Shown piece by piece: positions 13,776 to 47,485 of a DNA stretch of 64,000 bases. The notes under the pieces were generated by a model. The model ran no database searches. It was not told the DNA's origin and saw nothing but the letters and a program-made list of their open reading frames with translations. Made by a program: the position numbers and the translations under genes. Each line of letters opens with the position of its first letter. The first letter of the stretch is position 1. The stretch is from positions 2,133-66,132 of the forward strand of contig JAKBTL010000042.1 of assembly GCA_021844425.1 (NCBI GenBank), given 5' to 3'. The stretch is from Actinomycetes bacterium (lineage in GTDB: Bacteria > Actinomycetota > Acidimicrobiia > Acidimicrobiales > RAAP-2).

Positions 13776-14156
13776 GTGCTCGTTCCCGATGACCTCCGGT
13801 ACTCGACCGATCACGAATGGGCTCGCCCCGGCGAGGGGCGGGTACGCGTCGGGATCACCGACTACGCGCAGGACGCGCTGGGCGACGTCGTCTTCGTCGA
13901 CCTGCCCGAGGTGGGCAAGGCGGTGGCGGTGGGCGACGTCCTCGGAGAGGTCGAGTCCACGAAGTCCGTCTCGGAGGTGTACGCGCCGGTGGCCGGCAGG
14001 GTCGTCGCGGTGAACGACGCACTGTCGGGCGCACCCGAGAAGCTGAACCAGGACCCCTACGGCGAGGGATGGCTCTGCGAGATCGAGCTGGCTGGGACCG
14101 GCGACCTGGCCGGCCTGATGGACGCAGCCGGCTACCGGCAGCTCACCGAGGGTTGA
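13776..14156 (+). CDS. gcvH: Glycine cleavage system H protein
   Basis: 126 aa. Lipoyl-lysine motif EVESTKSVSEVYAP. HEW near the N-terminus. Confidence 0.92.
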   Translation: MLVPDDLRYSTDHEWARPGEGRVRVGITDYAQDALGDVVFVDLPEVGKAVAVGDVLGEVESTKSVSEVYAPVAGRVVAVNDALSGAPEKLNQDPYGEGWLCEIELAGTGDLAGLMDAAGYRQLTEG

Positions 14157-24773: not shown

Positions 24774-26158
24774 TGCCCGACTACCTCCCGCACACCGACG
24801 CGGACGTCGCCACCATGCTGGCGTTCCTCGGGCTGTCCGACATCGACGAGCTGTTCTCTGCGGTGCCGCACGCGCTGCGCCTCGCCGGCGGCCTGGCGCT
24901 GGCGAGCGGGGAGCCCGAGCCCGACGTGCTCGCGCACATGGGCGCCCTCGCCGGAGCGAACCGGGCGGCGGACCTGGTGTGCTTCGCGGGCGCGGGGGCC
25001 TACGACCACGAGGTGCCGGCGGTCGTGCGCGCGCTCGCCGGGCGCTCGGAGTTCGTGACCGCGTACACGCCCTACCAGCCCGAGGTCGCCCAAGGGGTGC
25101 TCCAGGCGGTCTTCGAGTACCAGACGATGGTCTCGAGGCTTTCGGGGCTGCCGGTGGCCAACGCCTCGCTCTACGACGGCGCGAGCTCCCTGGTGGAGGC
25201 CGTGAACCTGGGGGCGGCTGCGAGCGGTCGGGGGACCGTCTGGGTGTCCTCAGGCGTCCATCCGCACTGGCGGGCGTGCCTGCGCACGTTCTCCCGGGGC
25301 TCGGGTCACCGGATCGTGGAGATCCCGCTCGTCGACGGGGTGAGCGCGTGGCCGCATGACCCCGCACTTCGGGGCGACCACGAACCGCCTGGCGTGGTCG
25401 TGGTCGCCTACCCGAACTACCTCGGCTGCCTCGAGGACCTCGCCGCCGTGCGTCGCATCGCCGACGCGCACGGCTCGACGATGGTCGTGGCGCAGGACCC
25501 CGTCGCCGCCGGGCTCCTGCGCTCGCCGGGCGACTGGGGCGCGGACGTCGTCGTCGGGGAGGGCCAGGCGTTCGGGATGCCGCTCTCCTTCGGCGGACCG
25601 TACCTCGGGCTGTTCTCCTGCACGATGGCCCAGGTGCGCCGCCTCCCTGGCCGTCTCGTCGGCGAGACCGTCGACGTCGCGGGCCGCCGGGCGTACGTCA
25701 CGACGTTGAGAGCGCGCGAGCAGGACATCCGGCGAGAGAAAGCGACGTCCAACGTCTGCACGAACCAGACGCTCATGGCGGTGACGGCCGCCATCCAGCT
25801 GGGATGGCTCGGCACGCAGGGGTTGGCGGAGGTCGCCCTGCGCTGTGCGAGGGGCACCCGGTACCTGCGCGACGGCGCGCTCGGCATGAGCGGTGTCTCG
25901 CCGCTCACCGGGGACACGCCGGTCGTCCGGGAGCTCGCGCTGCGCACGGCCGTGCCGGCGCGCACGGTGATCGACCGCATGGCGGCTGAAGGGTTCCTCG
26001 CCGGCGTCGCGCTCGACGAGCTGACCGGCGAAGGTGGCGACGGTTCCGCAGACGCCAGCGCGGCGGAGCACGGTCTGCTCGTCGCCGTCACCGAACGCAG
26101 GACGCTCGCCGAGTTGAACGCGTACCTCGTCGCCCTCGAGAAGGCGGTGCGGCCGTGA
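24773..26158 (+). CDS. gcvPA: Glycine dehydrogenase (decarboxylating) subunit 1
   Basis: ATG 24773 overlaps the gcvT stop (TGATG). MPDYLPHTDAD...ML, AYTPYQPE.SQG-like (TAYTPYQPEVAQG). Confidence 0.9.
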   Translation: MPDYLPHTDADVATMLAFLGLSDIDELFSAVPHALRLAGGLALASGEPEPDVLAHMGALAGANRAADLVCFAGAGAYDHEVPAVVRALAGRSEFVTAYTPYQPEVAQGVLQAVFEYQTMVSRLSGLPVANASLYDGASSLVEAVNLGAAASGRGTVWVSSGVHPHWRACLRTFSRGSGHRIVEIPLVDGVSAWPHDPALRGDHEPPGVVVVAYPNYLGCLEDLAAVRRIADAHGSTMVVAQDPVAAGLLRSPGDWGADVVVGEGQAFGMPLSFGGPYLGLFSCTMAQVRRLPGRLVGETVDVAGRRAYVTTLRAREQDIRREKATSNVCTNQTLMAVTAAIQLGWLGTQGLAEVALRCARGTRYLRDGALGMSGVSPLTGDTPVVRELALRTAVPARTVIDRMAAEGFLAGVALDELTGEGGDGSADASAAEHGLLVAVTERRTLAELNAYLVALEKAVRP

Positions 26159-27801
26159 CGACCGAGGTCCCGCCGGACGGGACGGCAGGCGGCCACGACC
26201 TGCCTGGTGGCCGGGAGCCCGGGGGCCGGGCCCCCGGGGGCCGCGCGTGGAGCGCCCCGCTCATGGGCCGTGCCGAGGAGCCGACGCTCTTCGAGCTCTC
26301 AGAGCCGGGTCGGCACAGCTGGCAGCTCCGCACGACGGGCGTTCCGGAGTGGAGCGCCGAAGAGCTCCTCCCCGCCGCGCACCGCCGGCACGAGCCTGTG
26401 CCGCTCGCCGAGGTGTCCGAACGGGACCTCGTCGCACATTTCACGCGCCTTTCGCACCGGCAGTTCTCGGTCGACCTCGGCGCCTACCCGCTCGGGTCGT
26501 GCACGATGAAGTACAACCCGAAGGTCTGCGACACGGTGGCCTCGTTGCCGGGGCTGGCCGGGGTGCACCCCGCCGCCCCCGCACAGATGAGCCAGGGGTG
26601 GCTCGCACTGCTCGTCGAGCTCGAGGAGGCGCTGTGCGCGGTCACCGGCATGGCCGCCGCGACCTTCCAGCCTGCTGCCGGCGCGGCGGGCGAGCTGACG
26701 GGGCTGCTTCTCATGCGGGCGTACCACGAGGCGAGGGACGACAGGCGCCGGCGCGTGATCATCCCGGACTCGGCCCACGGCACGAACCCGGCCTCGGTCA
26801 GGATCGGTGGCTACGAGGTGACCACGGTGCCGTCGGACGACCGGGGTTGCGTCGACCTGGCCGCGCTGCGCTCGGTGCTCGACCGCGACGTCGCGGGGAT
26901 CATGCTCACGAACCCGAACACGCTGGGGCTCTTCGAGGAGGGCATCGAGGAGATCGCAGCCGCCGTCCACGACGTGGGCGGTCTCCTCTACTACGACGGC
27001 GCGAACCTGAACGCGATCCTCGGCGTCGTGCGCCCTGGGGACATGGGGTTCGACATCGTCCACCTGAACCTGCACAAGACCTTCGCCACGCCGCACGGCG
27101 GCGGCGGCCCCGGCGCAGGGCCTGTCGCGGTCGGCGAGCACCTGGTGGACTTCCTCCCCGGACCTCGCCCGGTCCGGCTCCTCCACGAAGCACAGGAGAG
27201 CGCGGCGTCGAACGGCACGGGTGCCGCCGCGTACGGCTGGGCGATGCCGCCGCGCTCGATCGGGCGAGTCCACTCCTGGCACGGCAACGCGCTCGTGCTC
27301 GCCCGCGCGCTCACCTACATCCGCGTCCACGGCGGCGACGGGCTGCGCCGGGTCGCCGAGCGTGCGGTGTTGAACGCGAACTGGCTGCGCGCCCGGCTCT
27401 CGTCCGCCTACGACGTGCCGTTCGACCGGCCGTGCATGCACGAGGCGGTGCTCGCTGCCTCCACGCTGAAGCGCCGCTACGGCGTACGTGCGCTCGACGT
27501 GGCCAAGCGGCTGCTCGAAGAAGGGTTCCACGCGCCGACCGTCTACTTCCCTCTGGTGGTGGACGAGGCGCTCATGGTGGAGCCGACCGAGACCGAGAGC
27601 CTCCAGACGCTCGAAGCTCTCGCCGACGCGTTCGAGCGGATCGCCACCGACGCGGCTGAGCCGGCGGGCGCCGAGGCCGCGCACGCCGCACCCCGCACGA
27701 CGCCGGTCGGTCGTCTCGACGAGGCGCGTGCAGCCCGGGTGCTCGTACCGACCTTCGACGCACGCGCGGACGTCGGGAAGCAAGGAGCGTCAGGGCCCTA
27801 G
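26155..27801 (+). CDS. gcvPB: Glycine dehydrogenase (decarboxylating) subunit 2
   Basis: GSCTMKYNPK, SAHGTNPAS, and the PLP-lysine context NLHKTF. The start overlaps the gcvPA stop; internal Met MGRAEEP is an alternative. Confidence 0.9.
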   Translation: MTTEVPPDGTAGGHDLPGGREPGGRAPGGRAWSAPLMGRAEEPTLFELSEPGRHSWQLRTTGVPEWSAEELLPAAHRRHEPVPLAEVSERDLVAHFTRLSHRQFSVDLGAYPLGSCTMKYNPKVCDTVASLPGLAGVHPAAPAQMSQGWLALLVELEEALCAVTGMAAATFQPAAGAAGELTGLLLMRAYHEARDDRRRRVIIPDSAHGTNPASVRIGGYEVTTVPSDDRGCVDLAALRSVLDRDVAGIMLTNPNTLGLFEEGIEEIAAAVHDVGGLLYYDGANLNAILGVVRPGDMGFDIVHLNLHKTFATPHGGGGPGAGPVAVGEHLVDFLPGPRPVRLLHEAQESAASNGTGAAAYGWAMPPRSIGRVHSWHGNALVLARALTYIRVHGGDGLRRVAERAVLNANWLRARLSSAYDVPFDRPCMHEAVLAASTLKRRYGVRALDVAKRLLEEGFHAPTVYFPLVVDEALMVEPTETESLQTLEALADAFERIATDAAEPAGAEAAHAAPRTTPVGRLDEARAARVLVPTFDARADVGKQGASGP

Positions 27802-27802
27802 G

Positions 27803-27928
27803 GACTGCTCCACGTGCGGGTTGTGCGCCCTCGCCTGCCCTCCGACAGCGATTGCGTACGACCCGGGTGCTCAGGTGCTCGAGGTGCCGCTTGGCCGGCG
27901 CCCCGGCGCTGCGCAGGTTCGCTGCTGA
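27803..27928 (+). pseudogene. Orphan 4Fe-4S ferredoxin motif without a usable start codon (putative gene remnant)
   Basis: The frame +1 relative to gcvPB reads DCSTCGLCALACPPTAIAYDPGAQVLEV, a complete CxxCxxCxxxCP motif, then stops at 27926-27928. There is no ATG/GTG between the gcvPB stop and the motif, and no second Cys motif. Confidence 0.35.
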
Positions 27929-28064
27929 GCAGTTGCGGTTGTGTGTGCGGCGCGTGATGGCCGCTTCGATCGGGCAGACCGAGCGGCGACCCGAAGTGGG
28001 TGCTGCGACATGCGACCGGAGGTGGGCGGACCGTGGTGCGCCCGGAAGGGAATGGAGGTTCGCG

Positions 28065-28199
28065 ATGCTGGCGGAGATCTTCGGCTTGGACGGCGTGCTG
28101 GTGCTCGTCACCGTCCCGGGGGTGCTCTTCGCGGCACCGGCCATCCCGAAGCTGGCGCGGAACCTCGGGTCGGCGAGGAGCGAGCTCGCAAGGGCCTGA
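28065..28199 (+). CDS. TatA/E-like mini-protein (44 aa), possibly truncated by a frameshift
   Basis: GGAGG lies 7 nt upstream of ATG 28065. The product MLAEIFGLDGVLVLVTVPGVLFAAPAIPKLARNLGSARSELARA has a TM helix plus a (P)KLARNLG hinge/amphipathic start like TatA. See findings for the -1 frame continuation. Confidence 0.45.
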   Translation: MLAEIFGLDGVLVLVTVPGVLFAAPAIPKLARNLGSARSELARA

Positions 28200-28218
28200 A
28201 GGAGTCCGCCGCGGCCAC

Positions 28219-28290
28219 GGATGTGGCCAAGGATGTGGCCAAGGATGTGGCCAAGGATGTGGCCAAGGATGTGGCCAAGGATGTGGCCAA
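28219..28290. repeat. 12-bp perfect tandem repeat x6 (ggatgtggccaa)
   Basis: Read directly. Encodes (DVAK)6 in the frame that continues the TatA-like ORF after a -1 shift. Confidence 0.95.
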
Positions 28291-28370
28291 GGCTGCCGGC
28301 TGGAGCTCCACGCGCACGTCGACTGCAGGTTGGATGGTTCTCGACCTGGACCTCCGGCGTGACGGGAGGT

Positions 28371-28466
28371 GACCGGGCGCACCGGGCGCACCTGGAGCAC
28401 CGGGCGCACCTGGAGCACCGGGCGCACCTGGAGCACCGGGCGCACCTGGAGCACCGGGCGCACCGG
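28371..28466. repeat. 18-bp tandem repeat, about 4.5 copies plus flanking partials (caccgggcgcacctggag)
   Basis: Read directly. Intergenic, about 150 nt upstream of the hydrogenase-like operon. Confidence 0.95.
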
Positions 28467-28586: not shown

Positions 28587-28615
28587 GGCCTCTACGCGAT
28601 TGCGTGGAGGCACAT

Positions 28616-29584
28616 GTGACCCCAGGGTTTGCCGTCGTCGCGCCGAAGGCCGTCCAGGCGCTTCAGGTGCTGACGATCGTCGTCGGCGCCCCGCTCGTGA
28701 GCGGGGTGATCTCGCATGTCGAAGCGCGCCTGCAGGGACGGCGTGGCCCTCGGATCCTCCAGCCCTACTACGACCTCGCGAAGCTCTTCCGCAAGGAGAC
28801 GCTCGTCACCGACGAGTCGAGCTGGGTCTTCCTGGCGGCGCCGGTCGTCGCGTTCAGCTGCTACCTGATCGTGCCGCTGCTCATCCCGGTCCTCACGACG
28901 TACCCCCTGCCGCTCGGCTACATGGGCGACATCCTCGGCGGGGGCTTCGTGCTCGCGCTCGGCGGGTTCTCGGTCGCGCTCGCGGCTGCAGAGTCCGGGG
29001 CTCCGTACGCGCAGCTGGGCGCCAGCAGAGCGATGACGTTCGGCGCGCTGGTGGAACCGACGATCCTCTTCGTCGTCTTCGTGGTGGGCCTGATCACCAG
29101 CACCGATCTTCCCTACGCGCTCGCCGGAACCGTCCGCTCGTCGTCGGAGATCGTGCGGCCGGGCCATGTCCTCGCAGCCGTTGCATTCTTCCTCGTGGTG
29201 CTCGTGGACACCGGGCGGATCCCCGTGGAGACCCATACCGGGACCCTTGAGCTCGGCATGATCGACGAGGCGCGCACCCTCGAGCACTCTGGGCCCGCCC
29301 TCGCCCTCTTGCAGTGGGGATCGGCGATGAAGCAGCTGGTCCTCTACACGATCCTCATCAACGTGTTCGTCGCTCCCTTCGGCCTCTCCTCGAACGGCGC
29401 GCCAGGGTCGGTGGTCGGAGCGATCGGCGCGCTCCTCGGCAAGGCCGTGCTCCTCGGGCTCGTCTTCGCGGTGATCGACAACCTGTTCGCCAAGCTGCGG
29501 CTGTACAAGATCCCCGAGTTCCTGGCGGCGGCCTTCGGCATCGCGGTGCTCGCCGTCGTCGTCTTCTACGTGGGTCCTGCGTGA
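28616..29584 (+). CDS. HycD/HyfC (NuoH-like) membrane subunit of a group-4-hydrogenase-related complex
   Basis: The N-terminus QALQVLTIVVGAPLVSGVISHVEARLQGRRGPRILQPYYDLAKLF is collinear with the recalled E. coli HycD N-terminus. GTG 28616 is preceded by GGAGG; GTG 28604 is an alternative. Confidence 0.85.
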   Translation: MTPGFAVVAPKAVQALQVLTIVVGAPLVSGVISHVEARLQGRRGPRILQPYYDLAKLFRKETLVTDESSWVFLAAPVVAFSCYLIVPLLIPVLTTYPLPLGYMGDILGGGFVLALGGFSVALAAAESGAPYAQLGASRAMTFGALVEPTILFVVFVVGLITSTDLPYALAGTVRSSSEIVRPGHVLAAVAFFLVVLVDTGRIPVETHTGTLELGMIDEARTLEHSGPALALLQWGSAMKQLVLYTILINVFVAPFGLSSNGAPGSVVGAIGALLGKAVLLGLVFAVIDNLFAKLRLYKIPEFLAAAFGIAVLAVVVFYVGPA

Positions 29585-30252
29585 TGCCCGTCCACGTCCC
29601 CTCCACCACCGCAGGCGTCGAGGACGTCGTCGCGGTGCTCGTCTTGCTCACCGAGTTCGCGATGCTGCGGGGTCCGCTCCTGCGCTCCCAGGTGCGCCTG
29701 TACGCGTTCCAGTCGCTCGCGGTGAGCGTGCTCGCCGTCGTCGTCGCCGCGACGAGGCACCTGGCGGACATCTACGCGCTCGCCGGGCTCTCCTTCGTCT
29801 TGAAGGTGGTGATCGTCCCCGCAGTCATGACGCGGCTGCTCCGAGACGTCGACGTCGACCTCGCCGGCAGCTCGAAGCTGGGCGTGGCCAGCTCCATGCT
29901 GGTGGCGCTGGCGGTGTCGGTCTTCGGCTTCTTCGCCGTCGGGTCTCTCCACGTCCACTCCTCGCTCCTGCCGTCGACGACGCTGGCGGTCGCGTCCGCG
30001 GTCGTGCTGGTCGCCTTCGTGCTGATCGTGCTGCGCTCCGACGTGGTCTCCCAGGCGATGGGGTTCTTCTCGCTCGAGAACGGCGTGTCGATCGCGGGCC
30101 TGGTGATCGCCGCGGGGCTGCCGCTCGTCGTCGAGACGACGTTCCTCTTCGACCTGCTCGTCGCGGTGGTGGCCTTCGGGATCATCATCCGCGTCCATCA
30201 CGGCCGATCGAGGACCCTGTCCACCGACGAGCTCGACAGGCTGCGCGGGTAG
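29584..30252 (+). CDS. HyfE/HycP-like small membrane subunit
   Basis: 222 aa, polytopic. ATG 29584 overlaps the upstream stop (TGATG). Size and position match HyfE/mycobacterial HycP. Confidence 0.75.
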   Translation: MPVHVPSTTAGVEDVVAVLVLLTEFAMLRGPLLRSQVRLYAFQSLAVSVLAVVVAATRHLADIYALAGLSFVLKVVIVPAVMTRLLRDVDVDLAGSSKLGVASSMLVALAVSVFGFFAVGSLHVHSSLLPSTTLAVASAVVLVAFVLIVLRSDVVSQAMGFFSLENGVSIAGLVIAAGLPLVVETTFLFDLLVAVVAFGIIIRVHHGRSRTLSTDELDRLRG

Positions 30253-30260: not shown

Positions 30261-31811
30261 ATGGCTGCCTTGCTCGTCGTGCTGCTCGCCTTCCCGTTCG
30301 CCGTGGGCGTGGTTTCCTACCTGGTGCCGGTGCGGGTCTCCAAGGTCCTCGCGCCCGTGTCAGGGGCAGTCGCGTTCGCCCTCTCGATTGCCCTCGTGCC
30401 GGCGGTCCTCACCCACGGCCACATCACCGCAGGAAGCGAGCTGCGGGTCGACTCGCTGTCCGTGGTGTTCTTGATCGCCACCTCGTTCCTCTACCTCGCG
30501 ACCGCGATCTTCTCGGCGGGGTACCTGCATCTCGACAGCGGCCCGGCAGGCGCCCGCTACGGCCGGCGCTTCTACGCCGGCCTGAACGTCTTCTGCTGGG
30601 CGATGCTCGCCGCGCCGCTCGTGAGCGGTCTCGCGCTGCTGTGGGTCGCGATCGAGGTCACGACGGTGGTCTCCGCGCTGCTCGTCGCGATCGACGACAC
30701 CGAGACGGCGACCGAGGCTGCGTGGAAGTACGTGCTGATCGCCTCGATGGGGCTCGGCATCAGCCTGCTCGCGACGATCGTGCTCTACTACGCGGGGACC
30801 TCCGTCTTCGGGGCGGGCTACGACCTCTCGTACGCGAAGATGCTCGCAGCGGGGCACCACCTTCCCCCTGAGGTGCTGCGGCTCGCGTTCGTGCTCGCAG
30901 TGCTCGGCTACGGGACGAAGATGGGCCTCGTACCGGTGCACACGTGGCTTCCCGACGCGCACTCCGAAGCCCCGACCCCGGTGTCCGCGCTGCTCTCGGG
31001 GGCGCTGCTTGCGACCAGCTTCTACGCGATCCTCCGGTACTACCAGATCACGGCCGCGGCGATCGGCTCCGTCTTCCCTCGCAACGTCCTGCTGGTCTTC
31101 GGCCTCGCCTCCCTTCTTCTCGCGGCGCTCTACCTGCTGCGTCAGCGCGACATCAAGCGGATGCTCGCCTACTCGAGCATCGAGCACATGGGCGTCCTCG
31201 CCATCGGGGTGAGCTTCGGGGTGACGCTCGCGTTCATCGGCGTCCTCCTCCACGTCCTCGCGCACGCCGCCGCGAAAGGCACCGCCTTCTTCGGGGCGGG
31301 CTCGGTCGTGCGCAAGTTCGGGACGAAGGACATGGCGCTCGTGCGTGGAGGGGTGGGCGCGCTGCCATGGAGCGGCTCGATGCTCGTTGCCGCGGTGCTC
31401 GCCCTCTCCGCCATGCCGCCGTTCGGCCTGTTCAGGAGCGAGTTCCTCATCGTCTCAGGTGGGCTCTCCGATCCGCGCTACGCGGTCGCGGCGGTGCTCG
31501 TGGTCCTCGTGACGCTCGCCTTCGTGGGCCTCGGGTGGTCGACCACGCAGACCATGCTCACGACGGGGCCCGCGGACGCCGCGCTCGCCGCGGCGCCGCA
31601 CGCGACCCCGCACACCCCGCACGCCCCGCACGCCCCGCACGCCCCGCACGCCGCTGTCGTGTCATCTCGCGTGCGAAAAGGCGAGGTGAGCCCGTGGATC
31701 GTCCTCGCGATGGCGCTCGGCATCGCGGCGTTGGTGCTTCTCGGTGTCCACCTGCCTGCCGACCTCAGCAGGCTGCTCGACCATGCGGCGCACGAGCTGA
31801 GGACACCGTGA
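30261..31811 (+). CDS. HyfF/HycQ-like antiporter-type (NuoM/N, MrpD family) subunit
   Basis: AGGAGGAGAG directly upstream. Canonical motifs VHTWLPDAHSEAPTPVSALLSG, AYSSIEHMG, HVLAHAAAKG. PHA repeat near the C-terminus. Confidence 0.88.
   Translation: MAALLVVLLAFPFAVGVVSYLVPVRVSKVLAPVSGAVAFALSIALVPAVLTHGHITAGSELRVDSLSVVFLIATSFLYLATAIFSAGYLHLDSGPAGARYGRRFYAGLNVFCWAMLAAPLVSGLALLWVAIEVTTVVSALLVAIDDTETATEAAWKYVLIASMGLGISLLATIVLYYAGTSVFGAGYDLSYAKMLAAGHHLPPEVLRLAFVLAVLGYGTKMGLVPVHTWLPDAHSEAPTPVSALLSGALLATSFYAILRYYQITAAAIGSVFPRNVLLVFGLASLLLAALYLLRQRDIKRMLAYSSIEHMGVLAIGVSFGVTLAFIGVLLHVLAHAAAKGTAFFGAGSVVRKFGTKDMALVRGGVGALPWSGSMLVAAVLALSAMPPFGLFRSEFLIVSGGLSDPRYAVAAVLVVLVTLAFVGLGWSTTQTMLTTGPADAALAAAPHATPHTPHAPHAPHAPHAAVVSSRVRKGEVSPWIVLAMALGIAALVLLGVHLPADLSRLLDHAAHELRTP
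31596..31652. repeat. 9-bp tandem repeat, about 5-6 copies (ccccgcacg; PHAPHAPHAPHA)
   Basis: Read directly. In-frame in the HyfF-like gene. Confidence 0.85.
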
Positions 31812-33388
31812 ACGACGCCATGAAGACGTTGTGGTCATCGGCGCACGCGCAGCCAGCAGACGCCGAGGATGCGGGGGATGTCGCGGTCTTCCCTTCCACG
31901 CGCCAGCGCGTCGCCGCCGGCGCGCGCTTCTGCGGGCTCTTCGAGGGCTTCCGAGGCGCGGGCTCCCCAGGCGAGGGATCCCCAGGCGAGGGCTTCCGAG
32001 GTGCCGCCGGCGCGGCGCTGCTCGCGGTGGTGTCGTCGGAGGGAACGCTGTTCGTCGAAGAGGCGCGTCTCGACGCGGGGCGGAGGCCCAGGTACGAGTC
32101 GCTCACCCCGGCGACCCCGGCCGCAGGCTGGTACGAGCGGCGCCTGCGCGACCTGTTCGGCATCGAGCCGCTCGGCCACCCGCGGCTCGACCCGCTCTCC
32201 TTCCCCGTGCCCGCAGGCAGCGCCGCGCCGCGGGGGATCGGAGGCGACCCGATGGTCCCGATGACCCCCGACCCGAGCCCCCTGCCGGCGCACGTCCACG
32301 GCGAGGGCGTGTTCACCCTTCCCTACGGCCCGGTCCGCTCGGGCGTGTTCGAGGCCGTCGAGTACCTGGTGGAGACGTCGGGCGAGGACATCTCGCACCT
32401 CCGGACGCGCATCTTCTACAAGCACCGGGGGATCGAGGCGCGCTTCTGCGGCCTGGGCGTCGCGGACGGCGTGCTGCTCGCCGAGCGCGTCGAGGGCGTG
32501 GCGTCCGTCGCGCACGCCGTCGCCTTCAGCCAGGCGATCGAGCAGATCGGCGACGTCGCGGTCCCGCTCGAGGCGCAGCTCGTCCGCGTCGTGCACGCCG
32601 AGCTCGAGCGTGTCGCGAACCACCTGGACACCATGGTCCGCCACACCGAGGCGGCGGGACAGGCGGTGGCCTACGCCGTGCTCTCGCACCACAAGGAGCG
32701 GGTCCAGCGGCTCCGGGCACGGCTTTCCGGCAGCCGCTTCGGAAGGGGGGTGGTCGTGCCGGGCGGTGTCATCAGGCCGCTGCGGCTCCGCCCGTCAGAG
32801 GTGCTGGCGACCCTGACCTCGCTCGAGCGGGAGATCGACGAGGACGTCCGCCGGCTGATGGACACCCCGTCCTTCGTGGACAGGCTGCGGGGGACCGGAG
32901 TGCTCGCGCATAGCGACGCGCGCCGGTTCGCGGTCGTCGGCCCGGTCGGGAGGGCCTCGGGGCAGTCGGAGGACGTCCGCACCAGCCGTCCCTACGGCGC
33001 CTACCAGCGTCTCGGGCAGCGGATCTTCGAACCCCACGAAGAGGGCGACGCCTTGGCGCGCCAACGCGTCCGCATCGCCGAGATCGCCGGCGCGTTCCAC
33101 CTGGTGCGCCAGGCGGTCGACCTGCTCGACGAGCTCGGGGAGCCGCAGCGCTGGCGTGCCGGTGTCCCTGCGGTGACCGGCCGGTCGATCGGGTGGGCGG
33201 AGGCGCCGCAAGGCGAGCTGCTCTACGTCGTCGAGGCGGCCGAGGGGCGCCTCGTGCAGGTGAGCCAGCGCTCCGCGTCGTTCCACAACCTCGCCGCGTA
33301 CCCGGCGGCCTTCCCGAAGGACATCTTCACCGACGTGGCCTTCATCGAGGCCAGCTTCGGGCTCTCGATCGCAGGGGCGGCCGGCTGA
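31808..33388 (+). CDS. HycE-like NuoC-NuoD fusion ('large subunit') lacking NiFe cysteine ligands
   Basis: GTG 31808 overlaps the upstream stop; ATG 31820 is an alternative. NuoC-like WYERRLRDLFGIEPLGHP. NuoD/HycE-like LPYGPVRSG...RIFYKHRGIE...ERVEGVASVAH. C-terminus FIEASFGLSIAGAAG. Confidence 0.85.
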   Translation: MNDAMKTLWSSAHAQPADAEDAGDVAVFPSTRQRVAAGARFCGLFEGFRGAGSPGEGSPGEGFRGAAGAALLAVVSSEGTLFVEEARLDAGRRPRYESLTPATPAAGWYERRLRDLFGIEPLGHPRLDPLSFPVPAGSAAPRGIGGDPMVPMTPDPSPLPAHVHGEGVFTLPYGPVRSGVFEAVEYLVETSGEDISHLRTRIFYKHRGIEARFCGLGVADGVLLAERVEGVASVAHAVAFSQAIEQIGDVAVPLEAQLVRVVHAELERVANHLDTMVRHTEAAGQAVAYAVLSHHKERVQRLRARLSGSRFGRGVVVPGGVIRPLRLRPSEVLATLTSLEREIDEDVRRLMDTPSFVDRLRGTGVLAHSDARRFAVVGPVGRASGQSEDVRTSRPYGAYQRLGQRIFEPHEEGDALARQRVRIAEIAGAFHLVRQAVDLLDELGEPQRWRAGVPAVTGRSIGWAEAPQGELLYVVEAAEGRLVQVSQRSASFHNLAAYPAAFPKDIFTDVAFIEASFGLSIAGAAG

Positions 33389-34239
33389 TGCCCTGGATCC
33401 CCCGCGGCCTGCGTCACGGCATCGTGACGAGCGGCTACCCGAAGCGTCCCGACGGGTACGGTCCCGGCTTCTTCGGGCACGTCGAGGTCGCGCCCGCCCG
33501 CGGCGACGGTCCCGAGGCGCTCGCCCGCGGCGACGGTCCCGAAGCGCTCGCCGCGGCGGTGGACGAGTGCCCCACCGGCGCGATCACGTTCGACGGCGAC
33601 GTGGTGCGGCTGGACCGCGGGCGGTGCATCCTGTGCGGCCGCTGCGTGGCGCTCGCCCCGTCGACGTTCCGTGCCGACCCGGGCTTCGAGACGGCTGGCC
33701 ACGGCCGGCGCGCGCTCGTGGTGCCGGCGGCCGAGGACGACGACGCGGCGCTGGCGGAGACCCGGGCGCGGCTCGCCCGGCGGGTCCGCGGGCTGCGCCG
33801 CTCCGTCCACGTCCGTCATGTCGACGCCGGATCGGACGGCGCAGAGGAGTGGGAGGTGGCGGCGCTGACCAATCCCGTCTACGACGTCCAGCGCCTCGGG
33901 GTCTTCTTCACCGCGAGCCCCAAGCACGCGGACGTGCTGCTCGTCACCGGCATCGGCACGGCGGGCATGGAGTCCCCGCTCCGCCAGACCTACGACCTGA
34001 TGCCCGAGCCCAAGGTGGTGGTCGCCGCCGGGGTCGACGCCGCGAGCGGCGGCATGGTGCATGCGGGCTACGCCGCGCGCGGCGGGGTTGCCGGGTTCAT
34101 CCCCGTGGACGTGTACGTCCCGGGCTCCCCGCCGAGTCCCTTCGGCATCCTCCACGGCATCTTGGAGGCTGTGGGGATCCTCGGCTCGCGCCGGCACATC
34201 GGCGCGGAGGGCCCGAAGGATGAGGCGGGCGCCCGATGA
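33388..34239 (+). CDS. Ferredoxin-like domain fused to a NuoB/HycG-like 'small subunit' lacking cluster cysteines
   Basis: ATG 33388 overlaps the upstream stop. N-terminal ECPTGAI...CILCGRCVALAP. The C-terminal part is collinear with HycG (PVYDVQRLGVFFTASPKHADVLLVTG, PEPKVVVAAG, PVDVYVPGSPPSP). Confidence 0.85.
   Translation: MPWIPRGLRHGIVTSGYPKRPDGYGPGFFGHVEVAPARGDGPEALARGDGPEALAAAVDECPTGAITFDGDVVRLDRGRCILCGRCVALAPSTFRADPGFETAGHGRRALVVPAAEDDDAALAETRARLARRVRGLRRSVHVRHVDAGSDGAEEWEVAALTNPVYDVQRLGVFFTASPKHADVLLVTGIGTAGMESPLRQTYDLMPEPKVVVAAGVDAASGGMVHAGYAARGGVAGFIPVDVYVPGSPPSPFGILHGILEAVGILGSRRHIGAEGPKDEAGAR
33497..33550. repeat. 27-bp tandem repeat x2 (ARGDGPEAL x2)
   Basis: Read directly. In-frame, with one substitution. 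Confidence 0.9.
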
Positions 34240-36392
34240 CCGCCGCGCTCATCGTGGCCGCGCTCGCCTGTCTGCTCGCCGGCGCTGCGGTCGACCTGGG
34301 TCTCGGGACGCGCTGGGCCATGGTGCGCGCGCTGCCATACCTGCTCGGCGCTGTAGGCAGCGCCTGTCTGCTCGCGGTCGGGATCCACGCGACGCTCTCT
34401 CGCACGCCGACCACCATCGGCATCGCGCCGCTCTTCGACGTGGCGCGCGGCGCGTTGCGAGTGGACCCGCTCGCCGGGCTCTTCCTGACGCTCATGTTCG
34501 GGATCGGCCTGGCGGTGTCCTTGTGCTTCGCCTCGTGGGCGTGGTCGGACGCCGGAAGGGCGCACCGCCGAGCGGTCGCGACCGGCTACCTCACGCTCCT
34601 CGCCTCGGTGGCGGTGGTGGTGTGCGCGGCCGACGCGTTCGTCTTCCTCTTCGCCTGGGAGGCGCTGACGGTCTCCTTCTACCTGCTGACGTCGGCGCAG
34701 CGGGGGAGCGAGCGCCAGGCGCGCGCCCCGTGGATCACGGCGGGCATCGGGAAGCTGAGCGGAGCGAGCCTGCTGTTCGGCTTCCTGCTCCTGGCGGGCC
34801 GCACCCACAGCTTGGCGATCGCGAGCTGGTCGCACGTCGGCCCCGGCGGGCTGCACGACGTCGCGTGGGTGCTCCTCCTGGTCGGCTTCGCCGCCAAGCT
34901 CGGCGTGGTGCCGTTGCAGGTCTGGATCCCGGTCGGCTACCCGGCCGCGCCGGGGCCGTCCCGTGCCGCGATGGCGGGGATCGCCGCCAACGTCGGCGTC
35001 TACGGCCTCTGGCGCTTCCTCGGCGTCCTCGGACGACCACCGGTGTGGCTGGTGATCGTCGTCTTGCTTGCCGGAGGGGTCACCGCGTTCCTCGGCATCC
35101 TCTTCGCGGGCGTGCAGTCGCGCCTCAGCCGCGTGGTGGCGTACTCGAGCGTCGAGCAGGCCGGGATCATCCTCGTCGCCTACGGCGTGGCGCTCACCGG
35201 GGTCACCGTCGGCTCGACGACTCTGGAGGTGGTCGGCCTCCTCGCCGCTTCGCTCCAGGTGGTGGCCCACGCCGTCGCGAAGTCCACGGTGTTCTGCTCG
35301 CTCGCGTTCGCCGAAGCCGAAGCGGGGACCGACGACCTCGACGCGCTGCGCGGCGCGGGTCGCCGCCTGCCGTGGAGCGGCGCGGCGTTCGGGGCTGGCG
35401 CCCTGGCGCTCGCGGGGCTCCCGCCGACGATCGGCTTCGTCTCGGAGTGGTTCGTGCTCGAGGCGCTCATGCAGCAGTTCCGTCTGGGGGGGCTCGCGTT
35501 GCGTCTCGGCCTCGCAGGGGCCGGGGCGCTCGTCGCGCTGACCACCGGGCTCGCCGCCCTCGCGTTCGTCCGCGTCCTCGGCCTCACGTTCCTGGGCCGC
35601 CGGATTGACTCGACTGCCTCGGTGTCGGTGTCGGTGTCGCCGTCGTCGGTGTCGCCGTCGTCGGTGTCGCCGGTGTCCGCGTCGGCTGCGCCGGCGTCGA
35701 GTGCGGCGACGCGAGCCGGGGACGCCGGCGTGCTCGGACGGGTCGGTCTCGTCGCGCTGACGCTCGGGTGCCTAGGGATCGCTGCGGCGAGCCCCTGGGA
35801 GGTCCGGTTCCTCGGGCACGGGCTCGCGCCGCTCGTGCCGCGAGCCGGCGTGCTGGGGGCGCTCAAGTCCCCATGGGTGCTCCAGCCCGTCTACCAGGGG
35901 TTCTCCATCCTCTCGCCGTCGTGGCTGTGGGTCGTCCTGCCGTTCGCGTGCGTGGGCGCCTTCGCGATGGCGATGCTCTTGTCGAGGGGGCGCTACGTGC
36001 GGGTCCGCCGGGTGCCGGCGTGGCGCTCCGCCACCGCGGGGGTGGCCGGCCGGTCGTCGTACACGGCGTTCGGTTTCGCGAACCCGCTGCGCCACGTGCT
36101 TGCCAACGTGCTCGCGACGGAGCGGATCCGTCGTGTCCGACCGGTGGTCGCAGGGATGTCCGTCGCGGGCGAGGCGGAGAGCCGTCTGCAAGAGGGAACG
36201 AGCGTCCACGTCGAGTCGGAGACGAGAGTCGTCGAGCCGGTCGAGGCGTACCTCTACCGGCCGGCGTGGAGGCTGGCCGTCGCGGTGGCCGACGCAGCAC
36301 GCCGGCTGCAGTCGGGGTCGCTCAACGCCTACGTTGCCTACATGCTGGTCGCGCTCCTCATCGCGCTCGCGGTCACGGCGGCACTGCGATGA
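34236..36392 (+). CDS. HycC/HyfB-like (NuoL-type) antiporter-like subunit
   Basis: 718 aa. ATG 34236 overlaps the upstream stop (ATGA). AYSSVEQAG, HAVAKS. The C-terminal SYTAFGFANPLRHV region is typical of HycC/HyfB. Confidence 0.85.
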   Translation: MTAALIVAALACLLAGAAVDLGLGTRWAMVRALPYLLGAVGSACLLAVGIHATLSRTPTTIGIAPLFDVARGALRVDPLAGLFLTLMFGIGLAVSLCFASWAWSDAGRAHRRAVATGYLTLLASVAVVVCAADAFVFLFAWEALTVSFYLLTSAQRGSERQARAPWITAGIGKLSGASLLFGFLLLAGRTHSLAIASWSHVGPGGLHDVAWVLLLVGFAAKLGVVPLQVWIPVGYPAAPGPSRAAMAGIAANVGVYGLWRFLGVLGRPPVWLVIVVLLAGGVTAFLGILFAGVQSRLSRVVAYSSVEQAGIILVAYGVALTGVTVGSTTLEVVGLLAASLQVVAHAVAKSTVFCSLAFAEAEAGTDDLDALRGAGRRLPWSGAAFGAGALALAGLPPTIGFVSEWFVLEALMQQFRLGGLALRLGLAGAGALVALTTGLAALAFVRVLGLTFLGRRIDSTASVSVSVSPSSVSPSSVSPVSASAAPASSAATRAGDAGVLGRVGLVALTLGCLGIAAASPWEVRFLGHGLAPLVPRAGVLGALKSPWVLQPVYQGFSILSPSWLWVVLPFACVGAFAMAMLLSRGRYVRVRRVPAWRSATAGVAGRSSYTAFGFANPLRHVLANVLATERIRRVRPVVAGMSVAGEAESRLQEGTSVHVESETRVVEPVEAYLYRPAWRLAVAVADAARRLQSGSLNAYVAYMLVALLIALAVTAALR
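35621..35680. repeat. 6/15-bp tandem repeats (SVSVSVSPSSVSPSSVSPVS)
   Basis: Read directly. In-frame in a loop of the HyfB-like subunit. Confidence 0.85.
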
Positions 36393-36907: not shown

Positions 36908-38815
36908 TCAGCTGCGGGGACCCCGGCCCTGGGGTGCGCCCAGCTCGGTGCTCGAGAGCTGCTCGGCCTGGCGTGCGAGGCACATGGTTCGGGCGCGCTC
37001 GGCTTCTCTCGCCGCCTGCTCGGACTCGGTCGACTCGAGTGCGTGCTGCGCACTCGACGCCGCCGCGATGATGGAGGCCTCGGTCTCCTCGAGCTCTGCG
37101 GTCATCGCGGCGACGAACCGCCGTGACACCGTGTCGAGACGCTGCACGACGTCGAATCGGGCGCGTCCCGCGTGCTTGTCGAGCTCCGAGACGAGCCGTC
37201 GGTGCGCCCGGTCGAGCATCGCACGGCGGGACCGCTCCGTCGGAAGGACCGTCCGAACGGCGCGTGCGAGCGAGGAGCCGGGGCTCTCCACCTGCAAGAA
37301 CAGGTACGAGAAGCGCTCGCGTTGCTCGGCGACCGTCGGGAGGACCGCTTCGGGGAGGTGCACTTCGAAGAGGGCGCTCGCCGCCGTGCGCAGCGACTGG
37401 ACCTGCTGGCGCAGCTTGCCCGCGAACGCTTCCGCGGACCGCGCCCAGCCCTCGTCCGCCGTCTCCTCGACCGCATGGCGCAACGGGTCGAAGGCGTCGG
37501 TGACCGCGCGGTCCACAGCGTCGTCGAGCGCGCGGTCGAGGGCGCGGCCGCGAAGACCTGCCACGGACTCCTCGACGCTGGGCCAGGCACGTCGAGCCAC
37601 CTCGGCCGCGCCTGCGGCGAGCGCGGCGCCCACCGCCTCTGCGATCTGTGCGACGTCGTGGTCGAGCACGAGCCGGCTGGCTGCGAGCTCGCGCCGCACG
37701 TCGTCCGCAGCCGCGCGGAACCGCTCGAGCCGCTCTTTCAGCGCGGCGAGGTCGAAGGTGGCTGCCGCCCGCTCGATGGCGACGGTCTCCGAGAGGGCCG
37801 CGGCCAGCCGGCCGAGCTCCGCGGCGCCTGCCCGCTCTCGCTCGGCGGCGAGGTCGTCGCGCAGGAACGCCTCCAGGTCGCCCCTGAACGCGTCGAAGCC
37901 CGGGTCGCCTGGCGCGCCCGTCCCGCCCGCCTCGCCTGGCGCGCCCGTCCCGCCCGCCTCGCCTGGCGCGCCCGTCCCGCCCGCCTCGCCTGGCGCGCCC
38001 GTCCCGCCCGCCTCGCCTGGCGCGCCCGGAGCGTCGGTCCCGCCCGCCGGGAACAGCGCGTCGAGGGCTCGGCGCGCCGAGAGGAAGTAGACCTCAGCGT
38101 GCTCGCCGAGCAGCCGTGCGAGGTGGCCGCTCAAGTAGCTGCGAACCTCTGCGAGCTCGTGCGCGACGAGGTGGTCGCACTTGTTGACCGCGACGAACAC
38201 CCGTCCGCCGCGGTCGGCGAGATCGGCGAGAAGGCTCTCTTCCTGCTCGGAGAGTGGGGCGTCGACGGACAGGACCACGACCGCTCCGTCGCTGTCGGAG
38301 AGCGCCTCTTTAGCTGCAAGGGTGTGCTGCTCGCTCACCGACGCGACGCCGGGGGTGTCGACGAGCACCACGCCCTGGGCCCCGAGGGGCGTGTCGACGT
38401 GCACCTCGACGCGCCTGACGCCCAGCCGGTTGGCGGGGTTGTCCCGCTCGCTCACGTAGCGCGCGAGCTCGCTCAGAGGAAGCTCGCGGCTCGTGGCGTC
38501 GTCGAAGACCACGCGCAGTCCCGGGTGCGGGTGCGCGAAGTGGACCTCGGTTGCGACGGAGGTGACGGGGACGACGCCCGTGGGGAGGACCGGCGCGCCG
38601 ATCAGGGCGTTCACGAGCGTGGACTTGCCGCGTTTGAACTCGCCGAGCACCGCGATGTGGTAGCGCTGGGCCTCGGAGCGCTCCGCGAGCCGCAGTGCTC
38701 GCTCGGCGAACGCGGCTGGCTGGTCCCCGAGCGCAGCCATCTCACGGGCGAGCGACGCGACCGTCGTGCTCGGTCGTGGGCTGGCTGGCATAGGTTCCTC
38801 CCGCCGGTGCTGCAC
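36908..38815 (-). CDS. Bacterial dynamin-like GTPase
   Basis: G1 GEFKRGKST, G3 LVDTPG, G4 NKCD. Long alpha-helical Ala/Arg/Glu-rich stalk. ATG 38791 is an alternative start. Confidence 0.8.
   Translation of the reverse strand: MQHRREEPMPASPRPSTTVASLAREMAALGDQPAAFAERALRLAERSEAQRYHIAVLGEFKRGKSTLVNALIGAPVLPTGVVPVTSVATEVHFAHPHPGLRVVFDDATSRELPLSELARYVSERDNPANRLGVRRVEVHVDTPLGAQGVVLVDTPGVASVSEQHTLAAKEALSDSDGAVVVLSVDAPLSEQEESLLADLADRGGRVFVAVNKCDHLVAHELAEVRSYLSGHLARLLGEHAEVYFLSARRALDALFPAGGTDAPGAPGEAGGTGAPGEAGGTGAPGEAGGTGAPGEAGGTGAPGDPGFDAFRGDLEAFLRDDLAAERERAGAAELGRLAAALSETVAIERAAATFDLAALKERLERFRAAADDVRRELAASRLVLDHDVAQIAEAVGAALAAGAAEVARRAWPSVEESVAGLRGRALDRALDDAVDRAVTDAFDPLRHAVEETADEGWARSAEAFAGKLRQQVQSLRTAASALFEVHLPEAVLPTVAEQRERFSYLFLQVESPGSSLARAVRTVLPTERSRRAMLDRAHRRLVSELDKHAGRARFDVVQRLDTVSRRFVAAMTAELEETEASIIAAASSAQHALESTESEQAAREAERARTMCLARQAEQLSSTELGAPQGRGPRS
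37905..38027. repeat. 27-bp perfect tandem repeat, about 4.6 copies (GAPGEAGGT units) inside the dynamin-like gene
   Basis: tcgcctggcgcgcccgtcccgcccgcc repeated from 37905. In-frame. Confidence 0.95.
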
Positions 38816-38851
38816 CTCGACAGGAGCTATCAGCCGTGATGGCGGTCGGTG

Positions 38852-38982
38852 GCGAGCTCCATCGCCGACGTCAGTCTACGTCTTCGGCACCGCGCACCGG
38901 CGATGCAGGCAGGCTCCACAGGCCCGGCCCCGTGCGACGCGCGACTCGGTAGGATCATGCAAGGAACGGCGATGGAGCTCGC
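38852..38982. promoter_or_regulatory. Perfect 15-bp inverted repeat pair (gcgagctccatcgcc / ggcgatggagctcgc) in the divergent promoter region
   Basis: Arms at 38852-38866 and 38968-38982, 101 nt apart, between the dynamin-like and MutS-like genes. Confidence 0.5.
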
Positions 38983-39077
38983 TGCACCGCCCTCGGGCCG
39001 CACCGGCCTCGGGCTGATGGCTCCTACTGACCGCTGGCGGCCTTCGGCCGCGATGCCGGCGAGAAGGGGAGTGGTGC

Positions 39078-47124: not shown

Positions 47125-47235
47125 GTCGGGGAGCCCGGCCGGATGGCCGCGTCTGGACCCTCTAGGGCCCAGGCGACGGGCCGTCACATTCTGACATAAT
47201 GGCCCTTATCGGCGGTTTCGAGAGATCGCTCCGAG

Positions 47236-47320
47236 CTCCTCCGGGGCCTGCTCCTCCGGGGCCTGCTCCTCCGGGGCCTGCTCCGCCGGGGCCTGCTCCT
47301 CCGGGGCCTGCTCCGGCGGG
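47236..47320. repeat. 15-bp tandem repeat, about 5.5 copies (ctcctccggggcctg)
   Basis: Read directly. Intergenic, upstream of ppa. Confidence 0.95.
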
Positions 47321-47327
47321 CTTCGGC

Positions 47328-47437
47328 GGGCGGGCCTCTGCCGCCGGGCCTCCCCGGGCGGGCCTCTGCCGCCGGGCCTCCCCGGGCGGGCCTCTGCCGT
47401 CGGGCCTCCCCGGGCGGGCCTCTGCCGTTGGGCCTCC
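47328..47437. repeat. 28-bp tandem repeat, about 3.9 copies (gggcgggcctctgccgccgggcctcccc)
   Basis: Read directly. Intergenic; ends about 50 nt before the ppa start. Confidence 0.95.
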
Positions 47438-47485
47438 TTTCCAGCCCGCTCGAGGTGTGCGCCCCGGCGGGCGACGGGGAAAGAT

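Follow-up and report, generated by a model that had tools for sequence, protein, structure and literature searches.

A six-gene cassette for a hydrogenase-like complex

We analyzed a 64,000-nucleotide (nt) stretch of contig JAKBTL010000042.1 from an Actinomycetes bacterium, hereafter called the window, whose own positions number all coordinates given here and whose base composition (70 to 74% G+C) is actinobacterial. Our subject is a cassette of six plus-strand genes whose starts and stops overlap or nearly abut, and which encode, in this order, homologues of the membrane subunits HyfC, HyfE, and HyfF, the large and the small subunit of a peripheral arm, and a homologue of the membrane subunit HyfB. 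The genes, together with two tandem repeats that lie within them, are as follows.

28604 to 29584, plus strand: HyfC/HycD/NuoH-like membrane subunit, first gene of the cassette (326 aa; Pfam NADHdh, 4.4e-33)
29584 to 30252, plus strand: HyfE-like (NuoK-related) membrane subunit (about 222 aa; NCBIfam hydrogenase 4 membrane subunit, 7.1e-24)
30261 to 31811, plus strand: HyfF-like antiporter-like subunit (516 aa; Pfam Proton_antipo_M, 7.5e-47)
31808 to 33388, plus strand: fused NuoC-like and NuoD/HycE-like large subunit (526 aa; from Pfam, NCBIfam, alignment, and AlphaFold2)
31942 to 31994, plus strand: in-frame tandem repeat GSPGE in a loop of the NuoC-like domain of the large subunit (TRF, period of 15 bp, 3.5 copies)
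33388 to 34239, plus strand: small subunit, a HyfH/NuoI-like ferredoxin domain fused to a HyfI/HycG/NuoB-like domain (283 aa; Pfam Oxidored_q6 and single-cluster Fer4 families)
33490 to 33558, plus strand: in-frame tandem repeat ARGDGPEAL in the small subunit (TRF, 27 bp, 2.6 copies)
34236 to 36392, plus strand: HyfB-like (NuoL/MrpA-like) antiporter-like subunit, last gene of the cassette (718 aa; Pfam Proton_antipo_M, 9.3e-39)

The large subunit has lost its nickel-iron and quinone ligands

An initial annotation of the large-subunit gene, made from the letters without database searches, had described a HycE/NuoD-like protein in which both NiFe CxxC motifs are replaced and the upstream GPxHxG/EPGHFR signature and the C-terminal ending are altered. 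Alignment with HycE, HyfG, and NuoCD from the genome of Escherichia coli K-12 (A1) bore out each of these observations. At the L1 motif (RxCGxCxxxH), where HycE reads DRVCGICGFAH, the window protein reads ERVEGVASVAH, the two cysteines being replaced by E229 (nt 32492 to 32494) and A232 (nt 32501 to 32503). At the L2 motif (DPCxxCxx(H/R)), LDPCYSCTDR of HycE is matched by FGLSIAGAAG, with S520 (nt 33365 to 33367) and G523 (nt 33374 to 33376) at the cysteine positions. The C terminus coincides with the end of mature HycE and carries no C-terminal extension for a maturation protease. In the altered upstream signature, the beta1-beta2 loop GPVRSGVFEAVEY (nt 32327 to 32365) pairs with GPLHVTSDEPGHFR of HycE.

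The protein does not resemble a typical quinone-binding subunit either. In the alignment with NuoCD, the column of the quinone tyrosine of NuoD is occupied by G230 and that of the histidine of the AAHG motif by F181; the corresponding headgroup ligands in Nqo4 of Thermus thermophilus are Y87 and H38, the latter in the beta1-beta2 loop. Pfam recognized Complex1_30kDa at residues 88 to 132 and Complex1_49kDa at residues 287 to 442, the latter with 109 bits against a cutoff of 24, while NiFeSe_Hases at residues 207 to 272 stayed below threshold (23.0; cutoff, 25.8). The score of the NuoD equivalog of NCBIfam, 163.8, was far under its cutoff of 360. Among solved structures, the closest by sequence was E. 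coli HycE (7z0s_E; E = 5.7e-39), followed by MbhL of Pyrococcus furiosus and many NuoD/49-kDa chains. The AlphaFold2 model (pLDDT, 81; pTM, 0.87), which is weak at the beta1-beta2 strands and at the C terminus, likewise matched the fold of HycE best (7z0s_E; TM score, 0.74), with fused NuoCD chains next. The absent NiFe ligands, the quinone-site columns, and the NuoD equivalog score support the view of the initial annotation that this is neither the large subunit of a hydrogenase nor a typical NuoD.

The annotation had also raised the possibility that the cysteine-containing segments lie elsewhere in the open reading frame (ORF), which begins with a GTG overlapping the stop of the upstream gene (GTGA). 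We rejected such hidden compensating cysteines: the protein has only two, C42 and C214, and neither is near the sites of the lost ligands. The columns that hold partly conserved cysteines in relatives (241, 307, 453, and 485) read S, S, V, and V in the window protein. The GSPGE repeat that had been noticed in the NuoC-like part was found again by TRF. It spans residues 52 to 61 (nt 31961 to 31990) in a loop that is modeled with low confidence or disordered (pLDDT of <50 at residues 51 to 55), and it is lineage specific, being missing from homologues under about 85% identity.

Large subunits without NiFe ligands are the hallmark of the energy-converting hydrogenase-related (Ehr) group, whose role has been described as unknown (PMC6349859, PMC4378227, PMC7304191, PMC7894505, bioRxiv 10.1101/765248). 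We are highly confident that the large subunit of the window is a cofactor-depleted member of this group, neither a hydrogenase nor a NuoD.

The small subunit apparently lacks an electron path to the pocket

In alignments with E. coli HycG, HyfI, NuoB, HycF, and HyfH (A2 and A3), the small subunit has none of the four cysteines that ligate the proximal, N2-type [4Fe-4S] cluster (CxxC ... GxC ... GCPP); D150 (nt 33835), E153 (nt 33844), D217 (nt 34036), and S247 (nt 34126) stand in their places. Exactly four cysteines persist in the ferredoxin domain, namely, C61, the fourth of motif 1, and C80, C83, and C86, the first three of motif 2. The first CxxCxxC of motif 1 is gone, the ARGDGPEAL repeat sitting where these three cysteines belong (A3), and the fourth cysteine of motif 2 is replaced by A90. 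In a structural model of moderate confidence (pLDDT, 66), the NuoB-like core matched HycG, MbhJ, and PSST.

Judged by their pattern, the remaining ferredoxin cysteines would suffice for one cluster. Electrons run from the donor through N6a, N6b, and N2 to the pocket (PMC7021789), and since N2 is absent, none can reach the large-subunit pocket by the canonical route. The small subunit is thus predicted to hold one isolated [4Fe-4S] cluster, with no electron path to the former active-site pocket.

Both subunits are conserved under purifying selection

The substitutions in both subunits recur throughout the family. The EG(V/I)A..AH motif and the IEASFG(L/V)S(I/V)AG ending of the large subunit are kept in all of its 120 best database homologues (56 to 100% identity), as well as in 80 loci from GTDB species genomes, among them those of Acidimicrobiales, Streptosporangiaceae, and the cultured Actinoallomurus acaciae. 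The small subunit could be compared in 75 of these genome loci, where D150 is present in 75/75, E153 in 68/75 (with D in 6 more), D217 in 73/75, and S247 in 71/75, and where C61, C80, C83, and C86 are invariant or nearly so. Its pattern of cysteine loss is repeated in 120 database proteins, most of which have only four or five cysteines overall. Of 204 small subunits without N2, 200 have three acidic residues, neither more nor fewer, at the positions of the four lost ligands, although which positions are acidic may shift (DEDS, DDDS, D[IV]DD). Cultured carriers of the cassette are Mycobacterium branderi JCM 12687, Actinoallomurus acaciae TBRC 0563, and Aciditerrimonas ferrireducens.

All six cassette genes are under purifying selection, with ratios of nonsynonymous to synonymous substitution rates (dN/dS) of 0.08 to 0.26. 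The large subunit reached 0.21 to 0.26 against orthologues at 75 to 87% identity and the other cassette genes 0.08 to 0.24 where they do not overlap; the neighboring gcvPB gave 0.12 to 0.18. These values bear on the explanation that the cassette stems from an error of sequencing or assembly, or that its genes are decaying into pseudogenes, to which the low-complexity repeat in the large-subunit gene and several short tandem repeats in the operon might point. Against it, the identical large-subunit protein is found in NCBI and in the independent Logan assembly of SRR13221984, and none of the six ORFs is interrupted, with starts and stops that overlap in the manner of translationally coupled operons. 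Because the features recur in more than 200 homologues under purifying selection, an assembly error, which the initial annotation had allowed for, can be ruled out, and with a dN/dS of about 0.2 and hundreds of homologues carrying the same substitutions we regard the chance of an artefact or of decay as negligible.

In the sampled loci, N2 loss is confined to one probable clade of Ehr-like complexes

To place the family, we scanned 1.84 billion cluster representatives with HMMER, which gave 4372 matches at an E value of ≤1e-3. Only about 22 of the 150 best matches, which we inspected, have all four NiFe cysteines; the others show EASG, as in the window, or SSSG, SNSG, SESG, SGTG, and other states at these positions. 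Large and small subunits were then paired locus by locus in a metagenome sample of 80 diverse loci, obtained in a profile scan with a 6-sequence alignment. Most large subunits without the cysteines turned out to be accompanied by a small subunit that keeps all four N2 cysteines (about 50 of the 80 loci). Loss of N2 was confined to the EASG family of the window, to its AATG and AASG relatives (all DEDS), and to a group that combines SSSG with D[IV]DD.

In a neighbor-joining tree, computed without bootstrap, these N2-less groups form one clade whose sister is an N2-retaining group. Common to both is the loop GPVRSG, in which an arginine at position 177 replaces the histidine of hydrogenases and NuoD. 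The content of ferredoxin clusters differs between the groups, the N2-retaining sister keeping two of them. A separate Ehr subgroup (H177, SSSG; loci L111, L119, L120, L139 to L141, L144, L156, L159, and L161 to L163) retains N2, has lost the first ferredoxin motif, and has an aspartate at the fourth cysteine of motif 2. Since this subgroup lost the first ferredoxin motif independently, stepwise Fe-S loss occurred more than once in Ehr complexes.

The conserved residues also admit a reading in which the complex has kept a redox function. Its one [4Fe-4S] cluster would then take electrons from a ferredoxin-like donor, with ion pumping coupled as in complex I or the membrane-bound hydrogenase (MBH), and a new, non-cysteine metal site, to which the small subunit contributes D150, E153, and D217 and the large subunit R177 and E229, would pass them to an acceptor. 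We consider both such an enzyme and the site that it would need unlikely. The four cysteines of the retained cluster are indeed invariant, but this cluster, which we take from the ligand pattern of Nqo9 to be of the N6b type, would lack both of its neighbors, the N6a-type input and the N2 output. Similarly, the former N2 ligands were exchanged for three strictly kept carboxylates and not for random residues, but we know of no Fe-S cluster ligated by three carboxylates. The pocket loop and E229 are invariant in the window family, but serine or alanine replaces E229 in the other N2-less subgroups. The reading gains from the sister clade, in which a full Fe-S chain stands under the same riboswitch control (see below), and from a gene for an alpha-type subunit of 2-oxoacid:ferredoxin oxidoreductase in the window (6259 to 8235, plus strand; POR, POR_N, and PFOR_II), which means that ferredoxin-dependent metabolism exists in the organism. 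However, the cassette has no conserved neighbor that could act as a donor or acceptor module, and the oxidoreductase gene is unlinked to it in other loci.

The membrane arm looks functional

The HyfC-like subunit is the most conserved protein of the cassette, with about 70% identity across the family and a dN/dS of 0.08. It keeps the acidic loop between transmembrane helices 5 and 6 in the alignment with E. coli HyfC, HycD, and NuoH, and its synteny holds in 74 loci. The HyfE-like subunit, whose start is uncertain by one codon (GTG at 29581 or ATG at 29584, overlapping the hyfC stop), keeps the ENG motif of E. coli HyfE and NuoK. The HyfF-like subunit matched hydrogenase 4 subunit F of NCBIfam at 7.4e-105, which is under the equivalog cutoff, and the HyfB-like subunit matched hydrogenase 4 subunit B at 2e-106. 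In both of these antiporter-like subunits, comparison with NuoL, NuoM, and NuoN showed the glutamate of transmembrane helix 5, the lysine of helix 7, the histidine and lysine of helix 11, and the glutamate of helix 12 to be present, residues by which the proton channels of NuoL, NuoM, NuoN, and Mrp are defined. Judged by these residues, the proton channels are intact and the membrane arm looks functional.

In 74 to 80 of the 80 genome loci, the six genes stand in the same fixed order. No conserved redox partner was found beside the cassette across these loci, nor any gene for a HycB/HyfA-type polyferredoxin, formate dehydrogenase, NuoEFG, or Hyp protein; among the ORFs scanned in the window, there was likewise no hyp, nickel transport, or formate dehydrogenase gene.

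These results can be set against the names under which such proteins are deposited at the Joint Genome Institute (JGI) and NCBI, namely, "formate hydrogenlyase subunit 5," "Ni,Fe-hydrogenase III large subunit," and "NADH-quinone oxidoreductase subunit C." Taken literally, they would make the complex a genuine [NiFe] group 4 hydrogenase or formate hydrogenlyase, or the large subunit a normal NuoCD of complex I. The Hyf-like gene set and the HycE-like fold are in keeping with such names. We nevertheless hold this very improbable, for a hydrogenase would have to do without all four NiFe cysteines, all four cysteines of the proximal cluster, and the C-terminal processing extension, and neither HycB/HyfA nor FdhF nor hyp genes occur in the cassette or among the scanned ORFs. 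A normal complex I is opposed by the missing quinone tyrosine and histidine and by NCBIfam equivalog scores for NuoD, NuoB, and NuoH far below the cutoffs. We infer from the sequences that the complex would be neither a hydrogenase nor a quinone reductase.

Fluoride riboswitches precede most cassettes of the family

Two divergent fluoride riboswitch aptamers lie within one 220-bp intergenic region and begin 2.4 kb past the end of the cassette. Both exceed the gathering score of Rfam RF01734 (34 bits), and both were also recognized by R1, our own covariance model built from 19 confirmed fluoride aptamers.

38814 to 38875, minus strand: fluoride riboswitch aptamer (Rfam RF01734, 39.4 bits; R1, 57.8 bits)
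38959 to 39033, plus strand: fluoride riboswitch aptamer (Rfam RF01734, 38.5 bits; R1, 50.3 bits)

The first is followed after 22 nt by the start of a gene for a dynamin-like GTPase (36908 to 38791, minus strand; Pfam Dynamin_N, 1e-27; ribosome binding site and ATG context), and this gene converges on the cassette. The second precedes two paralogous genes for MutS-domain-V ATPases (39078 to 40664 and 40439 to 42235; Pfam MutS_V). The same arrangement is repeated in the closely related loci L002 to L005. At a distance of 8 kb from the riboswitches is a gene for inorganic pyrophosphatase, whose sensitivity to fluoride is classic (47195 to 48007, plus strand), and no aptamer was detected before it.

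Upstream of the window cassette itself, no riboswitch was found even at an E value of ≤10, nor does one precede the cassettes of the closest relatives, L002 to L010, which make up the subclade of the window and are the main exceptions among the genome loci. Across the genome loci as a whole, R1 placed a same-strand aptamer upstream of hyfC, at a median distance of 88 nt, in 59 of the 70 that could be assessed, and at least one aptamer was present in 67 of the 80. Rfam confirmed 17 further aptamers in nine related loci. In L011 (5888 to 6836), a histidine phosphatase gene stands between the aptamer and hyfC. Mycobacterium branderi JCM 12687 (L166; NZ_AP022607.1, 510602 to 527903), whose subunits share the Cys-less states, has a riboswitch followed by a NUDIX gene and the six-gene cassette; a second aptamer precedes a Usp gene, enolase, DUF190, and MFS genes are located downstream, and three aptamers fall within 2 kb. 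Because no riboswitch precedes the cassette in the window or in L002 to L010, the fluoride link of the window locus is one of neighborhood and orthology: the window cassette has lost its own riboswitch but stays in a fluoride-responsive gene neighborhood.

The association follows the type of large subunit. In the metagenome sample, 25 of 39 loci of the R177 type had an aptamer, compared to 0 of 40 loci of the H177 type, whether Ehr or true hydrogenase (Fisher test, P = 6e-11), and the aptamer-bearing R177 loci include both N2-retaining and N2-less ones. Genes that recur beside the cassette are the MutS-V pair (26 loci), a Usp gene immediately after hyfB (19 loci), and enolase (13 loci), together with the dynamin-like gene and DUF190, MFS, NUDIX, and histidine phosphatase genes.

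This gene set resembles the one reported near crcB-motif RNAs. The motif precedes "formate hydrogen lyase," mutS, and ion transport genes (PMC2864571), and "formate hydrogen lyase" has been listed among the commonest fluoride riboswitch targets since 2010 (PMC2864571, PMC11139923). It is very likely that the cassette family belongs to this target class. A 2024 review reads these targets as a shift to fermentative metabolism (PMC11139923); since the actinobacterial members that we examined cannot be hydrogenlyases, a role in ion and pH homeostasis is more natural. Among the genes controlled by the riboswitch, Na+/H+ antiporters form the second most common class, and fluoride stress has been tied to cytoplasmic acidification and pH homeostasis (PMC11139923).

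DISCUSSION

A redox-independent ion translocator as a model

Riboswitch control spans sister groups with and without N2, and the function selected under fluoride stress would consequently need no electron delivery to the pocket. Since the membrane arm is homologous to Mrp antiporters, redox-independent translocation of cations and protons offers the simplest model. We tentatively propose, giving it about an even chance at best, that the complex works in fluoride and acid stress as an Mrp-like cation/proton translocator without redox input, in which the peripheral arm might serve as a cap, a gate, or a cation-binding vestibule. Expressed under stress by fluoride (hydrogen fluoride), the cassette would manage cytoplasmic pH and membrane potential. 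For example, trading ΔpH for Δψ could lessen the weak-acid trapping of fluoride and drive its export through channels. More generally, the complex is probably an ion-handling machine for fluoride stress and not a hydrogenase.

Several points weigh against this proposal. It derives a putative function from regulation, from features that are missing, and from a membrane arm that is homologous to Mrp and complex I, and the cassettes of the window and of L002 to L010 have no riboswitch of their own. The peripheral arm equals the membrane subunits in conservation: its beta1-beta2 loop and four-cysteine cluster are invariant, and E229 and the acidic triad are kept; being so strongly conserved, it fits an active role better than that of a mere cap. 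In the wider clade, redox chemistry may still matter, since the sister group keeps N2 and two ferredoxin clusters, and the clade itself was drawn from a neighbor-joining tree that has no bootstrap support. The conservation of the arm, the triad, and the cluster keeps alive both a residual redox function and a role for Mg2+ and fluoride at the triad.

As to the latter, the acidic triad may bind Mg2+ (or another hard cation) and thereby fluoride, which, from the former N2 position, would gate or drive the conformational coupling; the complex would then be a transporter that senses fluoride or is coupled to it. The precedents are enolase and pyrophosphatase, which are inhibited by metal-bound fluoride at carboxylate-Mg2+ sites, and the riboswitch, which likewise binds fluoride at Mg2+. 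We nonetheless judge this account improbable. Three carboxylates are retained even where their positions shift (DEDS, DDDS, D[IV]DD), but in M. branderi only two of the four sites are acidic (N150, D153, D217, and A247). The invariant R177 replaces the pocket histidine only in the riboswitch-associated clade, where control is direct, but the N2-retaining sister clade is riboswitch controlled without such a site. Fluoride does inhibit enolase and pyrophosphatase (PMC11139923), but the account as a whole is purely inferential.

A bolder proposal, which we see as distinctly unlikely, is that the actinobacterial branch, left with one isolated Fe-S cluster, gave up electron transfer entirely and became a fluoride-induced ion machine, in which binding of a cation and fluoride to the carboxylate triad at the former N2 site would trigger the coupling in place of an electron. 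If this were true, the "formate hydrogen lyase" class of riboswitch targets would have been misread for 15 years, and Ehr, a long-standing orphan of the complex I family, would gain a first testable physiological role.

A Cys-less large subunit alone is ordinary for Ehr. What makes the window family of interest is the lost electron wire in a large, conserved actinobacterial family combined with direct control by a fluoride riboswitch. Hundreds of such genes are labeled as hydrogenlyase, hydrogenase, or NuoC, and any H2 or formate metabolism deduced from these labels would be wrong. A branch in which the whole architecture and the coupling loops are under selection, with no electron path, would also be a natural experiment on the role of the peripheral arm beyond electron transfer.

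Other features of the window

A functional link of the cassette to the glycine cleavage genes gcvPA and gcvPB was considered and rejected, as the two are adjacent in only 2 to 4 of the 80 genome loci, all closest relatives. In the window, gcvH (13767 to 14156) is far from gcvT and from the genes of the two-subunit P protein, gcvPA and gcvPB (23691 to 24773, 24269 to 26158, and 26155 to 27801). Between gcvPB and hyfC lies a small ORF (27852 to 28199, plus strand) whose end is a TatA-like segment, FGLDGVLVLVTVPGVLFAAPAIPKLARNLGSARSELARA; it is kept in L002 and L003 at 62 to 70% identity and has no Pfam match. Short tandem repeats with periods of 9 to 27 bp are numerous: the 800-bp intergenic spacer before hyfC contains two arrays (28213 to 28292 and 28379 to 28464), and the coding sequences of four of the six cassette genes contain in-frame ones (31576 to 31654, 31942 to 31994, 33490 to 33558, and 35619 to 35707).

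The remaining genes noted in the window are ordinary core genes of actinobacteria. They comprise a minus-strand Pup-proteasome cluster with an ARC/Mpa ATPase, two genes of the Pup ligase family, PrcB, and PrcA, as well as TatC, a signal peptidase, and a long ORF with a ThyX domain. This minus-strand group occupies positions 57775 to 63998, 55626 to 56393, and 51566 to 53806.

Comparison with known systems

Three points go beyond the initial annotation: the naming of such complexes in the literature as Ehr or Hyq, the loss of Fe-S ligands in the partner small subunit, and the tie to fluoride riboswitches. The Ehr label has reportedly been in use since Coppi (2005) and Marreiros et al. (2013). 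Both names appear in several papers (PMC6349859, PMC4378227, PMC3357923, PMC4758237), and Ehr complexes have been reported in Geobacter sulfurreducens (GSU0739-45), Sulfobacillus, Margulisbacteria, the candidate phyla radiation (CPR), and Elusimicrobia (PMC4378227, PMC6349859, PMC7304191, PMC7894505). In Sulfobacillus, the same gene set (nuoH, nuoL, HyfE, and HyfB) occurs with a motif-less large subunit (PMC4378227). The window cassette has the defining features of the group (PMC6349859, PMC4378227, PMC7894505), a group 4-like large subunit without RxCGxCxxxH and DPCxxCxxH/R alongside NuoH-, NuoL/HyfB-, and HyfE-like subunits and a small subunit. It differs from most of the Ehr-like loci sampled (about 50), whose small subunits keep the N2 cysteines, in that its branch has lost N2 and one ferredoxin cluster. 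Moreover, this branch and its sister are controlled by fluoride riboswitches, whereas the H177-type Ehr loci are not.

The Hyq "endo-hydrogenase" complex of Azorhizobium caulinodans (hyqRBCEFGI) has the same six types of subunit, homologues of HyfB, HyfC, HyfE, HyfF, HyfG, and HyfI. HyqG is a NuoC::NuoD fusion of about 504 aa without both CxxC motifs, with three conserved cysteines (C258, C491, and C497 in A. caulinodans), and HyqI keeps four N2-type cysteines (PMC3357923). In contrast, the window small subunit has none of the N2 cysteines and the window large subunit only C42 and C214, which places the cassette outside Hyq. Hyq has further been reported to have H2-linked activity, it is associated with N2 fixation and not with fluoride riboswitches, and the alphaproteobacterial relatives are only about 32 to 33% identical.

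Among characterized complexes, hydrogenases 4 and 3 of E. coli (Hyf and Hyc; formate hydrogenlyase, PDB 7Z0S) provide the best matches, HycE for the large and HycG for the small subunit, and the membrane subunits score best on the models of HyfB, HyfC, HyfE, and HyfF. The window cassette, however, is without the NiFe site, the proximal cluster, HycB/HyfA, FdhF, HyfD, the maturation protease site, and hyp genes; its HyfH and HyfI are fused, and its identity to HycE is only 26%. With the quinone-reducing module of complex I, it shares the NuoC-NuoD fusion seen in the NuoCD proteins of E. coli and Aquifex (TM score, about 0.7) and the absence of NiFe cysteines, but it has neither the quinone tyrosine and histidine nor cluster N2, lacks one of the two NuoI clusters, and is without NuoA, NuoJ, and NuoEFG.

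The likeness to Mrp antiporters lies in two MrpA/MrpD-like subunits with intact lysine and glutamate residues, a NuoK/MrpC-like subunit, and no apparent redox input. The window cassette adds a NuoH-like subunit and a full, cofactor-poor peripheral arm, and equivalents of MrpB, MrpE, MrpF, and MrpG were not identified in it. Control of the family by the crcB fluoride riboswitch is shared with the "formate hydrogen lyase" and ion transporter targets of that motif (PMC2864571, PMC11139923). By these comparisons, the window family is a member of the known Ehr kind that has advanced further in the loss of its cofactors.

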